A DNA stretch of 64,000 nt from Candidatus Goldiibacteriota bacterium (GTDB lineage Bacteria > Oederibacteriota > PGYV01): NCBI GenBank assembly GCA_016937715.1, contig JAFGWA010000005.1, forward strand, positions 5,040 through 69,039. Direction: 5' to 3'. Below, one piece after another: positions 2,954 through 59,953 of this stretch. How positions within the stretch are numbered: the stretch's first letter is position 1; every line of letters begins with the position of its first letter. The notes beneath the pieces were generated by a model, which ran no database searches, had not been told where the DNA came from, and was given only the letters and a program-made list of their open reading frames with translations. The position numbers and the translations under genes were made by a program.

Positions 2954-4401
2954 CCTGTTTTTGTTTCCTGCCTGGGCCTTGCAATTGCCAAAGAATCATC
3001 CGGCACGTTATCCGTTATTACGGAACCCGCGCCAATTACCGAATTTTTTCCTATTTTAACCGGCGCCACAAAAACCGAATTGCTTCCGACATACGCGCCG
3101 TCACCTATGACTGTTTTGTTCTTTTTTACGCCGTCATAATTTGCGGTAATGGTGCCCGCGCCTATGTTGACGTTACTGCCAATTTCCGAATCGCCGATGT
3201 AGCTTAAATGCGCGACGTTGGTATTATTGCCTACAGTGGAATTTTTTACTTCCACATAATTTCCTATCTTGCAGTTATTTCCGATTACAGCGCCCTGCCT
3301 TAAATGCGCCGAAGGCCCTATACTGCAGTTTTTTCCAATTTTTACCCCTGACTTAATTACCGTAAAAGGGTGAATAACAGTTTCATTACCTATTTCAACG
3401 CCTTCTTCAATGTAAACCGTGTCAAAATCAACAATAGTTATACCATTTTCAGAAAGCTTTTCAAGAACTTTTTTATTTCTAATCTTTGCCGCCTCCGCAA
3501 GTTGAGCCCTGCTGTTCACGCCCGCAAGCTCCCTGTAAGGTACATCCACGGGAATAAGCGGCCTGCCTTCAGCGTACATTAAAGCCGCTATATCCGTCAG
3601 GTAATATTCGCCTTTTGCCTTATTTACCTTTATTTTTTCAAGGTTTCTTTCAAGGCTGTCTTTCCTTATTATATATATGCCGCCGTTTATAACTTTAATT
3701 GTCTTTTCGCGGTCATCGGCGTCTTTATCTTCAACAATACGCATTACATAATCTTCGCTGTTTCTTACAATCCTGCCGTAACCGGCCGGATTTTCGGCAA
3801 AAGAGACACCAATTATACCACCGTCACTTTTCTTTGTAAACATTTTAATTAAATAACTGACTGTATCAGCCGTTATAAGCGGCGTATCCCCGCTTAATAT
3901 CATTACCCCGTCTTTTAAGGGAATTTTCGCCTTAATCACCGAATTCACGGCGTCTGCCGTTCCAAGCTGTTCTTTCTGCAGTACAAATCTTATATTTTTT
4001 CCGTTATACCGCGCTGCGGCAAAACTTTTAAGCTGCTGCATATTGGCGCCGGCTACAACGGTGATATCAGAAACCCGCGCTTCAAGGCACGCGTCAATAA
4101 CGTGCGCCAGCATTGGTTTTCCGCTTACTTCATGCAGGACCTTTGTTTTGTCCGATTTCATCCTTGTGCCTTTTCCGGCGGCAAGAATTACGGCGGAAAT
4201 TCCGTTGACGGGTTTAATTATTTTTTCTGTTTTTAAAGCCTCAACACCGTCAGAACTTTCAGCGCGCTCTTTGCCCGAAAAAAACGCGACATCTATCTCC
4301 ATTTCTTTGCCTTTCAGGTTTTTGCCCACTTTGTACTTTTCGTTATTCCGCTTGTTTTTCATTCTGTTATTTACCGCACGATCCGTCTTTTGAATGTTCA
4401 C
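2926..4401 (-). CDS. glmU: bifunctional UDP-N-acetylglucosamine pyrophosphorylase / glucosamine-1-phosphate N-acetyltransferase
   Basis: AVILAAGKGTRMKS nucleotidyltransferase motif plus left-handed beta-helix hexapeptide repeats in the C-terminal half. The 5' end is a GTG start at 4401 that overlaps the upstream ORF; the real start may be Met at about 4302. Confidence 0.88.
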   Translation of the reverse strand: MNIQKTDRAVNNRMKNKRNNEKYKVGKNLKGKEMEIDVAFFSGKERAESSDGVEALKTEKIIKPVNGISAVILAAGKGTRMKSDKTKVLHEVSGKPMLAHVIDACLEARVSDITVVAGANMQQLKSFAAARYNGKNIRFVLQKEQLGTADAVNSVIKAKIPLKDGVMILSGDTPLITADTVSYLIKMFTKKSDGGIIGVSFAENPAGYGRIVRNSEDYVMRIVEDKDADDREKTIKVINGGIYIIRKDSLERNLEKIKVNKAKGEYYLTDIAALMYAEGRPLIPVDVPYRELAGVNSRAQLAEAAKIRNKKVLEKLSENGITIVDFDTVYIEEGVEIGNETVIHPFTVIKSGVKIGKNCSIGPSAHLRQGAVIGNNCKIGNYVEVKNSTVGNNTNVAHLSYIGDSEIGSNVNIGAGTITANYDGVKKNKTVIGDGAYVGSNSVFVAPVKIGKNSVIGAGSVITDNVPDDSLAIARPRQETKTGWVKKRRKK

Positions 4402-27111: not shown

Positions 27112-27146
27112 TGTTTCTCCTTTTAATTAGTTTATCTCATAACCTT

Positions 27147-27169
27147 CTATCCCATATCCCATAAATAAA
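27147..27169. repeat. CTATCCCATATCCCATAAATAAA motif (tandem TATCCCATA) upstream of thiE; second copy at 439-461 upstream of comEA
   Basis: An identical 23-mer (roughly 41-bp similar block) lies 36-90 nt upstream of two unrelated minus-strand start codons. Confidence 0.5.
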
Positions 27170-27227: not shown

Positions 27228-27421
27228 ACCCGGACAGCGCAGGAGCGCTGTCCCTACAAAAACACAACCAACTGCCGCGGGCTGAAGACCCGCGTCTATC
27301 CCGCCTGCTTCAGCTCGCAAGCTCGCTTCATTGCCGGGATTTCCGCTTCGCAGGCTCGCTCCAACCAGATCTAAACCGACCTTCCAAGCATCCAACCTTC
27401 CAAGCATCCAAGCATCTACCA
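27228..27421. repeat. composite repeat cluster between thiS and thiE: hairpin H1, hairpin H2 (CAACTGCCGCGGGCTGAAGACCCGCGTCTA) and CCAAGCATC octamer runs
   Basis: Shares 25-30-bp blocks with loci at 14421, 36932, 37318-37470, 47735-47840, 48107-48200 and 59827-59935. Confidence 0.7.
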
Positions 27422-27622
27422 CTATCCTCCCCCTACAAACCTTACAATTTCCACCTTATCGCCGTGGTTAATGTTTCTGCTTTCAAAATTATCCCTTGCA
27501 ATTATCTCGCCGTTTAATTCCACGACGGTCATGCCCTGTTTTAATCCAAGCGAGACAAGCAGCGCGGATACTGTCATGGTGCTTTCAAATTCTTTTTCAG
27601 CGCCGTTAATTATTGCTTTCAT
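27422..27622 (-). CDS. thiS: sulfur-carrier protein ThiS
   Basis: 66 aa ending in ...VGGG; lies inside the thi operon. Confidence 0.8.
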   Translation of the reverse strand: MKAIINGAEKEFESTMTVSALLVSLGLKQGMTVVELNGEIIARDNFESRNINHGDKVEIVRFVGGG

Positions 27623-30429: not shown

Positions 30430-30554
30430 TTTAAAAACAAAAAAGCCCCTGTTTTGCAGGGGCTTTTAAATTTATAAGCTCCCTGCGGCGGCATTATCCG
30501 CGTCAGGTTCATAGGGTATAATCTCAGACCGGCTTATTACCGGCCACCCCTGCC
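30430..30554 (-). ncRNA. TPP (THI-box) riboswitch with an intrinsic-terminator expression platform, leader of the thiFGHS operon
   Basis: The minus strand reads GGGGTGGCCGG...CTGAGATTATACCC...GAACCTGACGCGGATAATGCCGCCGCAGGGAGC, the THI-element consensus. It is followed by the hairpin GCCCCTGcaaaaCAGGGGC plus TTTTTTGTTTTT. Confidence 0.75.
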
Positions 30555-30706
30555 TTAATGCTTTATTCTCTATAGAATCTGTTTTTAGAACAAAATTTAG
30601 TAGGAGCAGGCACTTAGGGGGTTTGGGAGGGGGGTATTTGGGAAAAAAGCGCCTGCCCCGTATTTTTATTATACAACTTTATGTTTCATTTGCAATACCG
30701 AATTAT

Positions 30707-37317: not shown

Positions 37318-37470
37318 TCAGATGCTTGGATGCTCGGAAAAGCATGACGCTTGGATGCTTAGATGCTTGGTCAAAACCGGATACAAGCGAAAACAGCAAC
37401 TGCCGCGGGCTAAAGACCCGCGTCTACCAATGTTTCCAAGCATCTAAGCATCCAAGCCTCTAAGCATCTA
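37318..37470. repeat. octamer (ATGCTTGG-like) runs flanking an H2 hairpin (CAACTGCCGCGGGCTAAAGACCCGCGTCTACC)
   Basis: Same modular repeat family as 27228-27421 and 48107-48200. Confidence 0.7.
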
Positions 37471-37477
37471 CTTCCGT

Positions 37478-47612: not shown

Positions 47613-47899
47613 TAAAAAACTATCAAGTCACTTTTGTGCTGATTATTTGTTCTGACCGCATTTTTTAAAGCAGGCGTTATAAAGATGGAGTGACGGATGC
47701 ACAGAGGGACAGATGGACGGAAGTAAAGCAAAGCAGATGCTTGGACGCTTGGATGGTTAGAGGGTTGGCATACAAAGCCGGGGGACAAAAGTAAATACAA
47801 ATAACAATTCAACTGCCGCGCCCTAAAGGGACGCGCCTACCAAGGCATAAAAACAAAACATCAAAACAAAACCCGTATGTGTTGTTGCGGGTTTCAAAA

Positions 47900-48102
47900 C
47901 AGGGGTTGGGTGTGTTTTTTCAGTGCGTGCCGCGTAAGTATACTGTATATGCAGCAGGGACGGTTTAATGCCGCGCCGGCAAATCCGGATGTACCGCAAG
48001 GCCACGGTTGCCAATGACGTTAACACACCGGCGGATTCAGATTTATTTGAATACAAGAACACCAATTTGCGGCGCGTGCTGAAAAAATATACCCAATCCC
48101 TG
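47900..48102. repeat. 203-bp element with 33-bp terminal inverted repeats (copy A); MITE-like or structured RNA
   Basis: 5' CAGGGGTTGGGTGTGTTTTTTCAGTGCGTGCCGC ... GCGGCGCGTGCTGAAAAAATATACCCAATCCCTG 3'. Conserved internal block TTGCCAATGACGTTAACA. Two further copies at 59313 and 59619. Confidence 0.75.
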
Positions 48103-48106
48103 TAAA

Positions 48107-48200
48107 ACCGGATGCTTGGATGCTTAGAGGCTTGGACGTTTGGTAAAAGCAATTATAAAAGGCAAATACAACTGCCGCGGGCTGAAGACCCGCGTCTACC
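48107..48200. repeat. tail module: ATGCTTGG octamer x4 plus H2 hairpin; near-identical to 59827-59935
   Basis: GGATGCTTGGATGCTTAGAGGCTTGGACGTTTGGTAAAAGCAATTATAAAAGGCAAATACAACTGCCGCGGGCTGAAGACCCGCGTCTACC. Confidence 0.75.
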
Positions 48201-56287: not shown

Positions 56288-56471
56288 ATTAAGGTCCTCC
56301 TGTACGGCAACTTACCGCCTAACCATTGTAATGATAAAATCCTTTAAAATCAAGAAAAAAGATAAGTAATTGATGGTTAGATGCTTAGAAGCTTAGATGT
56401 TTGATTGAATCTAATGCGCTAAGATAAATTGCACACCAATAAAAATCCATCAAGGGAAACAGCTATACAAC

Positions 56472-59220: not shown

Positions 59221-59312
59221 GCCGGGAGAGACGAGGGTCGGAGGGTCGGAAGCAAAGACAAAAATAAAGCAAACATTGAAAATTCGAAATTCGAAGATTC
59301 GATTAACACCTA
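59221..59312. repeat. GGACGG-rich block plus GAAATTCGAAG block that precedes each tandem 203-bp element; repeated at 59521-59618, a variant at 47693-47735, and an inverted copy at 551-600
   Basis: GAGACGAGGGTCGGAGGGTCGGAAGCAAAGACAAAAA...AATTCGAAATTCGAAGATTCGATTAACACCTACA. Confidence 0.7.
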
Positions 59313-59515
59313 CAGGGGTTGGGTGTGTTTTTTCAGTGCGTGCCGCACAAGGATAATGTGTATGCGGCAGGAGCGGTTTAATGCAGCGCCGGCATACACG
59401 TATGTGCCGCGGGCTCACGATTGCCAATGACGTTAACATTCTGATGATTTCAAATTTGTTTGGATGTAAGCACACCAGTTTGCGGCACGCGCTGAAAAAA
59501 TATACCCAAACCCTG
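59313..59515. repeat. 203-bp inverted-repeat element, copy B
   Basis: Same termini as copy A; about 85% identical to copy C. Confidence 0.75.
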
Positions 59516-59618
59516 TAAAACCGAGAGACGGATGCACGGAGGGTCGGAGGGACGGAAGCAAAGACAAAAACAATACAAACATCGAAAATTCGAAATTCGA
59601 AGATTCGATTAACACCTA

Positions 59619-59821
59619 CAGGGGTTGGGTGTGTTTTTTCAGTGCGTGCCGCTTAAGAATAGTGTGTATGCGACAGGAGCGGTGTAATGCATCGCCGGCA
59701 GATTTGTATGTGCCGGGAGTTTACGATTGCCAATGACGTTAACATTTTGATGATTTCAATTTTGTTTGGATGCAAGCATACCAGTTTGCGGCACGCGCTG
59801 AAAAAATATACCCAAACCCTG
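59619..59821. repeat. 203-bp inverted-repeat element, copy C (in tandem with B), followed by the tail module 59827-59935
   Basis: Same termini; the tail is near-identical to 48107-48200. Confidence 0.75.
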
Positions 59822-59953
59822 TGAAACTGGATGCTTGGATGCTTAGAGGCTTGGACGTTTGGTAAAAGCAATTATAAAAGACAGATACAAAATCTGCGGG
59901 CTGAAGACCCGCGTCTACTAAGACTAAACCGAACCGCCGAGCCGCCGATTTCC

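Follow-up and report, generated by a model that had tools for sequence, protein, structure and literature searches.

Is a short unit with long complementary ends, found three times between genes in one stretch of bacterial DNA, a mobile element or the gene of a small RNA? We addressed this question for a 64,000-nt stretch, referred to as the window, of contig JAFGWA010000005.1 from a Candidatus Goldiibacteriota bacterium (assembly GCA_016937715.1, positions 5,040 to 69,039 of the forward strand), which carries a 203-nt element in one solitary and two tandem copies. The initial annotation, made from the letters of the window, had described the element as either a miniature transposable element with inverted repeats (MITE) or a multi-copy small RNA. 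The answer that we prefer, with a probability of roughly 0.5, is that it is a sedentary, MITE-shaped repeat that is kept as a plus-strand hairpin RNA, whose transcription we infer, within a mosaic of short repeats. The three copies are as follows.

47900..48102, plus strand: element copy A, 203 nt (5' arm 47900-47933, interior, 3' arm 48069-48102; each arm 34 nt)
59313..59515, plus strand: element copy B, 203 nt, first of the tandem pair
59619..59821, plus strand: element copy C, 203 nt, the later member of the tandem pair, beginning 306 nt after the start of copy B

Copies in the Window and Range of the Family

The three 203-bp copies were present where the initial annotation had placed them, all on the plus strand, and the terminal inverted repeats (TIRs), given there as 33 bp, form a 34-bp stem that closes each copy. 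The 5' arm, CAGGGGTTGGGTGTGTTTTTTCAGTGCGTGCCGC, is the same in copies A, B and C: the 34 nt at the start of the element do not differ between them and pair with its terminal 34 nt, and 6 of the 34 paired positions in copy A are G·U. A 24-nt arm probe matched the window six times (three arms, and three reverse arms with 3 mismatches), as compared with 0.00 matches expected from shuffled sequence. The shared internal core that had been noticed earlier was likewise recovered as the 18-mer TTGCCAATGACGTTAACA, with three matches in the window against 0.08 expected from shuffled sequence. Copy A folded to -89.5 kcal/mol on the plus strand (z = -6.8) and to -74.5 kcal/mol on the minus strand (z = -4.0), and the minimum free energy (MFE) of copy B was -99.2 kcal/mol on plus and -81.5 on minus. 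The similarity of copies A and C reaches past the 203 nt, over 300 nt in all, and takes in the octamer block and the hairpin that follow the element.

The arm 24-mer was then used for an exact search of 185,579 species genomes and for a metagenome scan, the 5' arm being the probe in both. Among the species genomes only one matched, the metagenome-assembled genome (MAG) JAKQNO01 of a sister species, with 20 matches on 15 contigs; nhmmer located at least 23 element copies as well as fragments in it. The metagenome scan yielded 47 further stretches from digester and sludge assemblies, all of which come from this one genus (Candidatus Goldbacteria) and have flanks that share 79-100% identity with JAKQNO01. 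In addition, a Candidatus Goldbacteria (Goldiibacteriota) MAG encodes a protein with 100% identity to the lipoyl synthase LipA of the window. The 203-nt unit is a dispersed family, with at least 20 copies per genome, confined to one Candidatus Goldbacteria genus. The dispersal of copies over 15 contigs excludes the remnant of a segmental duplication, which the initial annotation had named as a finding that would speak against its proposal.

The suggestion of an undescribed multi-copy family was borne out by these copies, at least 23 on 15 contigs of the sister-species MAG, and by the lack of any Rfam relative. Specifically, an Rfam scan of the kind proposed with the initial annotation gave no match to the element when the whole window was searched at gathering thresholds, the only match being a thiamine pyrophosphate (TPP) riboswitch elsewhere. 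At E values up to 10, both loci gave only chance matches (plant microRNA precursors, rli48 and a long non-coding RNA), far under threshold. Across the linker (window 59479-59658), the 3' arm of copy B can also join the 5' arm of copy C in an alternative long hairpin, and the sub-threshold matches to plant microRNA precursor models arise because of it. A tRNA/tmRNA scan found none, collections of viral contigs, plasmids and phages gave zero matches to the element, and no literature was found on these accessions or on Goldbacteria repeats.

Strand-Polar Evolution of the Terminal Stem

To characterize the stem, 30 distinct full-length copies were aligned, so that columns 1-34 pair with columns 172-205. 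Pairing was observed in 95.1% of cells, as opposed to 37-58% when the partner was slid by 1-3 columns. Sixteen stem pairs are invariant and five are changed on both sides (19 cells), and the covariation score of the stem was above that of 500/500 shuffles. The outer 24 bp are nearly invariant in sequence, and the inner 10 bp vary and compensate, as in columns 26/180, where GC occurs 9 times, AU 11 times and GU 8 times.

The changes are not equivalent on the two strands. Read on the plus strand, the non-Watson-Crick cells of the stem comprise 107 G·U (in 10 columns) versus 9 A·C (scattered, one or two per column), and pairing is 95.1% on plus and 85.5% on minus. The plus-strand fold was the more stable in 30/30 copies, with means of -88.7 kcal/mol on plus versus -72.7 kcal/mol on minus. 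As a control we used the D2 hairpins of the same intergenic regions, each consisting of CAACTGCC, a stem and CTACC, with compensatory stem variants (GCGGG/CCCGC, GCGCCC/GGGCGC and GCACCC/GGGTGC); they are probably terminators or 3' hairpins of minus-strand genes. Their polarity was opposite to that of the element: 23 of 27 variants were more stable on the gene-sense strand, with 18 G·U pairs there vs 4 on the other. The two hairpin types of one intergenic mosaic are thus selected on opposite strands. Compensatory base pairs on one strand, as expected of a structured RNA, are present in the terminal stem only.

Mutation bias does not appear to cause this polarity, whether as a replication-linked or as a transcription-linked C-to-T change, because C deamination on the G-rich leading strand would give A·C, not G·U, on the plus strand. 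Furthermore, the plus strand is the leading-strand template, which is not exposed as single-stranded DNA (ssDNA) at the fork; this favours RNA over ssDNA as the selected molecule.

Orientation, Site Occupancy and the Case for a Transposon

At the ten sites where both neighbour genes are co-directed (13 copies), the element was antisense to them in 10/10, and on its 3' side there is almost always a convergent gene that ends toward it. At 43 of 47 loci the element lies on the C-rich strand. As for the window as a whole, about 94% of its open reading frames (ORFs) lie on the minus strand, the plus-strand GC skew is -0.09 to -0.16, and the AT skew is mostly negative. The neighbours are unrelated housekeeping genes (mfd, lipA, uvrC and deaD, and those for an aldo/keto reductase, a GH9 cellulase, an MCP, a phosphoglucomutase and an ABC-F protein), and no transposase, recombinase or reverse transcriptase was seen among them.

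Orthologous sites were occupied in 6/6 comparisons between species of about 80% nucleotide identity (copy A/L017, L064/L010, L047/L022, L055/L060, L057/L059 and the B-C pair/L067); these pairs were retrieved via the presence of the element, so that empty sites are under-sampled. The orthologue of copy A in the sister species (L017:1172-1441) lies between the same two genes, and the B-C tandem has an orthologous pair in L067 and one copy in L069. What differs at orthologous sites is tandem copy number (one full copy in L064 versus two full copies and a 40-nt fragment in L010; one in L069 versus two in L067), nested inserts of a 69-nt repeat, and exchanged flanking modules. The arms are much better conserved than the core and flanks. 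Between orthologous copies, identity amounts to 79-100% in the 3' arm (19/24 to 24/24; about 91% when pooled), an arm that had no part in the retrieval, to 73-85% in the core, and to about 80% in the flanking DNA, which is mostly coding. The strand-polar compensatory evolution of the stem, the orientation bias and the stability of the sites together argue for a maintained function of the plus-strand hairpin, and the element behaves as a unit under selection rather than as currently jumping DNA.

The same observations bear on the alternative that survives best, a classical MITE, that is, a TA-duplicating (IS630/Tc1-like) non-autonomous transposon, of the type proposed for Correia, RUP and ERIC, mobilised in trans via its 24-34-bp TIRs, for which the hairpin would be a by-product. 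Its anatomy is that of such an element: 203 bp, intergenic, with 34-bp TIRs starting CAGG (termini CAGGGGTTGGGTG...), at least 23 dispersed copies per genome, and other small repeats nested within it. It also agrees with a published definition of MITEs in being shorter than 500 bp and non-coding and in having TIRs, the 34 nt lying at the upper edge of the quoted range of about 4-30 bp, and the same definition allows for direct repeats that fade with age and for stable stem-loop transcripts (PMC10969869). Assemblies also break at copies: short-read contigs of the organism of the window end at the repeat flanks, and those of several relatives end just past lipA. In practice, the repeats break short-read assemblies of Goldbacteria MAGs. 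TA stands on both sides of 13/33 distinct copies and on the 3' side of 27/33. However, this self-complementary TA belongs to the conserved flanks and extends the stem (TG/TA gives another plus-strand G·U), so that it is indistinguishable from a 2-bp target-site duplication and may be no more than stem. Direct repeats of 3 bp were found at the ends of only 1/33 distinct copies, and those of 4-10 bp at 0/33. The flanks are conserved modules rather than random targets, the orthologous sites are all occupied and differ only in tandem number and nested inserts, and strict orientation bias with strand-specific compensation is unexpected of double-stranded DNA TIRs.

A search for a partner transposase had been suggested with the initial annotation. 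A Pfam scan of ten flanking genes returned ordinary genes, with no transposase and no Y1/HUH gene among those ten, and no full-length partner bounded by the arms turned up in the about 600 kb fetched (arm and nhmmer scans with the arm-only copies inspected; ORFs not systematically annotated, whole genome not searched). From the earlier choice between a MITE-like element and a multi-copy small RNA, the MITE anatomy and a strand-specific pairing have both stood, and they were accompanied by no clear target-site duplication of at least 3 bp, by no empty site among the six compared and by no transposase among the ten genes scanned. A MITE origin is plausible, and we consider it rather unlikely that the family is a classical MITE today.

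A Proposed Plus-Strand Hairpin RNA and the Points Against It

If the element is kept as a plus-strand hairpin RNA, the following mechanism can be proposed. The plus strand, antisense to almost all neighbour genes, would be transcribed. The arms would pair into a 34-bp stem (24 bp near invariant and about 10 bp covarying) that closes a core conserved in sequence, not in structure, and the long double-stranded stem would be the functional part. It would most plausibly be bound or cut by a double-strand-specific protein, such as RNase III, and might in this way define or stabilise an RNA, which could also bear the G-rich tail of 8-nt repeats that lies downstream. Each unit would be convergent to the adjacent gene and placed just past the terminator hairpin of that gene. 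We infer that the selected single strand is RNA rather than DNA, and likewise both ends of the transcript and the protein partner.

Several observations weigh against this proposal. First, part of the conservation of the 5' arm is ascertainment, since this arm was the probe of both collection scans. Second, a G·T wobble forms in ssDNA too, so that the polarity test alone cannot separate RNA from ssDNA. Third, no interior helix consistent across copies was found in columns 35-171 by RNAalifold, by a stacked-pair scan or by averaged pair probabilities; the individual MFE structures of the copies disagree with one another, and a core without conserved helices is unusual for a stand-alone structured RNA. 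Fourth, the signals expected of an independent transcript are weak: no sigma-70 promoter was found upstream on the plus strand at the 9/12 threshold of the tool, the best upstream candidate, TCGAAA-17-TAGATT, scores 8/12 and has the key A in 13/31 copies, about 30% of copies are without the upstream module described below, and no U-tract terminator follows the element on plus. Finally, between strains about 90% identical, tracts of 99-100% identity reach 600-1100 bp into the flanks (L052 vs L061, L037 vs L040 and L046 vs L061, with flanking genes 86-95% identical) and are not readable as selection on the element. They likely stem from a hot spot of recombination, from a sweep in the recent past or from chimeric assembly, and purifying selection estimated from such strain pairs was rejected as evidence because the identical tracts run well past the element.

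Note that weak promoter-like matches also occur inside the element (TTTTCA-16-TATACT and TTGCCA-16-GATGAT), partly in variable columns, and that the organism does use TATAAT, which is present both in L018 and upstream of the reductase gene.

Interior of the Element and Length Variants

The initial annotation had proposed that variable internal arms form a long stem. This holds for about 10 bp by which the stem continues inward from the invariant arms (columns 25-34 paired with 172-181) and not for the remaining interior of about 135 nt, which has no conserved helix. Within this interior, conservation takes the form of sequence islands, namely GGCAGGGGC, GTTTAATGC, CGCCGGCA, TTGCCAATGA, GATTTCAA and ACCAATTTGCGGCGCG. 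The ORFs that overlap the copies had been attributed to repetition alone, and they indeed proved to be artefacts: no frame is open in more than 11/30 copies, and the alignment shows neither a period-3 signal nor a difference in variability between codon phases. A coding element was rejected on these grounds.

Length variants of 177-326 nt derive from a nested repeat of about 69 nt that enters at two favoured places, in a single orientation. Copies with one insert are 270 nt long and those with two are 326 nt long, and two that have recombined with loss of core give 177-180 nt. This second repeat (GTTGGAGCGAGCCTGCGAAGCGGAAATCCCCGGGCTTGCGCGAGTTTACGAGCGCAAGTGTTAGGGGAC) was seen in 19 distinct contexts and is without terminal inverted repeats; inside the 203-nt element, GGC always follows it. 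A copy in L022 is missing from the orthologous element in L047, indicating that the 69-nt repeat moved after the species split. Its copies include the following.

L017:1248-1316; L005:2807-2875 and 2956-3024; others: 69-nt repeat copies
27308-27365 of the window, minus strand: partial copy of the 69-nt repeat

Flanking Modules and the Repeat Mosaic

The common flanking modules that had been reported around the copies are real and consist of G-rich blocks with an 8-nt period, of an octamer block and of a downstream hairpin. Together with related features elsewhere in the window, they are listed below.

47695..47766, plus strand: two 8-nt periodic blocks (47695-47726 and 47735-47766), upstream of copy A
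47799..47839, minus strand: D2 hairpin in a variant form (GCGCCC..GGGACGC) upstream of copy A; its stem has changed in a compensatory way relative to other D2 copies
48110..48141, plus strand: 8-nt periodic block of the GGATGCTT type, directly downstream of copy A
48158..48198, minus strand: D2 hairpin after the mfd stop codon, terminator-like on minus
59224..59252, plus strand: G-rich 8-nt periodic block (GACGAGGGTC GGAGGGTC GGAAG), upstream of the module of copy B
59274..59312, plus strand: upstream module, (GAAAATTC)x3 + GATTAACACCTA, abutting copy B directly
59530..59561, plus strand: 8-nt periodic RGAnGnnn block in the B-C linker
59580..59618, plus strand: the same upstream module, before copy C
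59829..59860, plus strand: 8-nt periodic block of the GGATGCTT type, directly downstream of copy C
59877..59917, minus strand: D2 hairpin after the lipA stop codon (GCGGGTCTTCAGCCCGC + AGATTTTGTA), terminator-like on minus
27258-27298 and 37386-37426: further D2 hairpins
56379-56402, plus strand; 561-600, 27378-27417 and 37438-37469, minus strand: other RGAnGnnn blocks
420-461 and 27128-27169 of the window; L018:6340-6390; L071:4841-5056: other tandem modules

Downstream of nearly every copy, TAAAGCCGAGGGACGG... is followed by an 8-nt periodic RGAnGnnn block and then by a D2 hairpin. Upstream, (GAAAATTC)x3-GATTAACACCTR precedes about 70% of copies at a near-fixed spacing (within about 1 nt), and all 30/30 distinct instances of this module precede an element. 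The last 7 nt of the module can pair with element positions 8-14, giving a 7-bp hairpin followed by T6/U6, which the scan flagged as terminator-like on the plus strand. Two other roles were considered for these modules and rejected: the upstream module as a portable gene promoter, since the sole gene-adjacent case (L018) has its own TATAAT promoter downstream, and a mini-ORF (ATG...TAA) in the octamer blocks, since the 8-nt period shifts the frame between copies.

The RGAnGnnn blocks are of two types, GGAGGGAC/GGATGCAC and GGATGCTT; their last three bases differ at orthologous sites and the pattern is kept. They hold GGAUG motifs, resembling CsrA sites, and GGAGG motifs, resembling Shine-Dalgarno sequences. 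At 37318-37477, a hairpin module is bracketed by two inverted RGAnGnnn blocks. Other short tandem modules are found between genes in the genus, namely TATCCCATATCCCATAAATAAA, 8-mers of the TAAGC type and an about 45-nt CGCTATAGCTTAACTGCCTATAGCTTAAATCGCTATGTTTC array, which stands in place of the elements after lipA in one relative. As a separate observation, the TPP riboswitch lies at 30463-30561 on the minus strand (68.8 bits versus a gathering threshold of 54.3), upstream of a minus-strand gene cluster including a ThiS-family protein (27422-27622).

The flanking modules also permit a more specific reading, which we regard as unlikely. Each unit would be an independent small-RNA gene, in at least 20 paralogous copies head-on to co-oriented genes, and the copies together would form a sponge-RNA system. 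The 34-bp stem would act as a clamp hairpin that protects the 5' part, and the G-rich tail (ACGGAUGCAC, GGAGGGAC) would titrate an RNA-binding protein (CsrA, for example) or the end of 16S rRNA that bears the anti-Shine-Dalgarno sequence. Within a tandem array, each RNA would end at the small hairpin and U6 provided by ACACCUR/UGGGUGU of the next unit. If true, an uncultured phylum would possess a modular system of sponge RNAs in high copy number.

Remaining Alternatives

The strand specificity, the absent target-site duplication, the persistence at sites and the orientation relative to replication would also be accounted for by an ssDNA hairpin element, either REPIN/RAYT-like or derived from IS200/IS605, whose folded stem is recognised by an HUH tyrosine transposase. 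A stem of this kind would tolerate G·T in strand-specific pairing, its orientation would follow the skewed strand, as at 43/47 loci here, its sites would stay occupied over the long term, and the insertion of the 69-nt repeat in one orientation at preferred sites is likewise in its favour. IS608-type elements (IS200/IS605) use the lagging-strand template, which is exposed as ssDNA. In contrast, the well-paired strand of the Goldbacteria element is the C-rich, gene-antisense strand, the leading-strand template. Furthermore, such families have short subterminal hairpins or two short REPs, not a 34-bp stem spanning 135 nt, and no Y1/HUH gene was seen among the scanned genes, the full genome not having been searched. 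An ssDNA element is an unlikely explanation, less probable than a classical MITE.

Still less probable is an inverton, in which the 34-bp inverted repeats would be invertase sites flipping a core of about 135 bp with promoter-like hexamers (TTGCCA-16-GATGAT). Invertible-promoter families are known in Bacteroides, and the element resembles them in size, in an inverted-repeat sequence common to many loci, and in its internal promoter-like matches. Correia elements have also been reported to invert (PMC10969869). However, in about 50 assembled instances from many samples the core has one orientation relative to the arms, and full-length nhmmer matches cover positions 1-203 unbroken. Flips would turn G·U into A·C mismatches in the arms, and the ratio of the two is 107 to 9. 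The position-2 A of the -10-like hexamer lies in a variable column, and many copies lie between the 3' ends of genes, where a switchable promoter would have no target.

A neutral remnant, that is, functionless old duplicated DNA kept similar through gene conversion, is already disfavoured and would be surprising, for although the 99-100% tracts in about 90% identical strains suggest recombination and tandem copy number varies (L069/L067; L064 vs L010), the copies are dispersed over at least 15 contigs, the arms are far better conserved than core and flanks, the stem changes are compensatory and strand-polar, and the orientation bias is 10 to 0.

Comparison with Known Systems

Repeats of the ERIC, Correia and REPIN type are common and poorly understood, and it is debated whether such repeats are selfish or serve the host as signals in RNA or DNA. 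The Goldbacteria element was compared with these and other systems. The Correia elements of Neisseria are MITEs of about 100-200 bp with TIRs of about 26 bp and a TA at either end; they number tens to hundreds between genes and contain promoter-like hexamers, and their RNA hairpin is cut by RNase III (PMC10969869). The Goldbacteria element is similar in its size, long TIR hairpin, TA ends, many intergenic copies and promoter-like hexamers, and it may also be similar in RNase III cleavage. On the other hand, Correia elements show insertion polymorphism between strains, occur in either orientation and often lie upstream of genes, whereas the Goldbacteria element occupies all six sites compared, is near-always antisense, has conserved flank modules and shares no sequence similarity with them.

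ERIC repeats are intergenic palindromes whose copies are often conserved at orthologous sites, and in both respects the Goldbacteria element resembles them. An ERIC (or IRU) sequence is an imperfect palindrome of about 127 bp, located between genes, with orientation-dependent effects at the RNA level, including an RNase E site that is unmasked (PMC10969869). The two differ in that ERIC is transcribed within the flanking mRNAs, whereas the well-paired strand of the Goldbacteria element is antisense to them; the phylum is another one, and there is no sequence similarity. Mosaics are known as well: in BIMEs of E. coli and in the BOX/RUP/SPRITE clusters of pneumococcus, short modules stand in variable order and elements are inserted in one another (PMC10969869). 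The Goldbacteria mosaic is comparable in its octamer blocks, (GAAAATTC)x3 module, D2 hairpins, TATCCCA and TAAGC modules and nested 69-nt repeat, but the module sequences are unrelated, and those mosaics contain no counterpart of a 203-nt unit with a 34-bp stem.

REPINs, which go together with RAYT transposases, are non-autonomous, vertically inherited and persistent at their sites. Two inverted arms form a long hairpin in both cases. REPINs, however, are about 70-110 nt long and consist of two short palindromic REPs with a GTAG end, whereas no RAYT was seen among the scanned genes around the Goldbacteria element, and its paired strand is not the lagging-strand template. As for the CsrB/RsmZ sponges, the CsrA consensus obtained by systematic evolution of ligands by exponential enrichment (SELEX) is ARGGAUGU, and downstream of each Goldbacteria element there are 4-6 GGA-containing 8-mers (e.g. 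ACGGAUGCAC) that are like this consensus. CsrB/RsmZ differ in carrying GGA in hairpin loops and in being single-copy genes with a clear promoter and terminator, whereas the Goldbacteria 8-mers form an unstructured tandem array that is found in both orientations in the genome.

If plus-strand transcripts are confirmed, the element would be a high-copy, antisense-oriented family of hairpin RNAs amid about 94% gene co-orientation, and the intergenic "repeat grammar" of Goldbacteria would become interpretable. The family is new and restricted to one Goldbacteria genus, and the general kind to which it belongs, small palindromic intergenic repeats acting via RNA hairpins such as ERIC and Correia, is known. 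Relative to those systems it offers a clean comparative case, in which the arms persist, covariation of the stem is confined to one strand, the sites are stable across species, and the terminator hairpins beside it supply a built-in control of opposite polarity.

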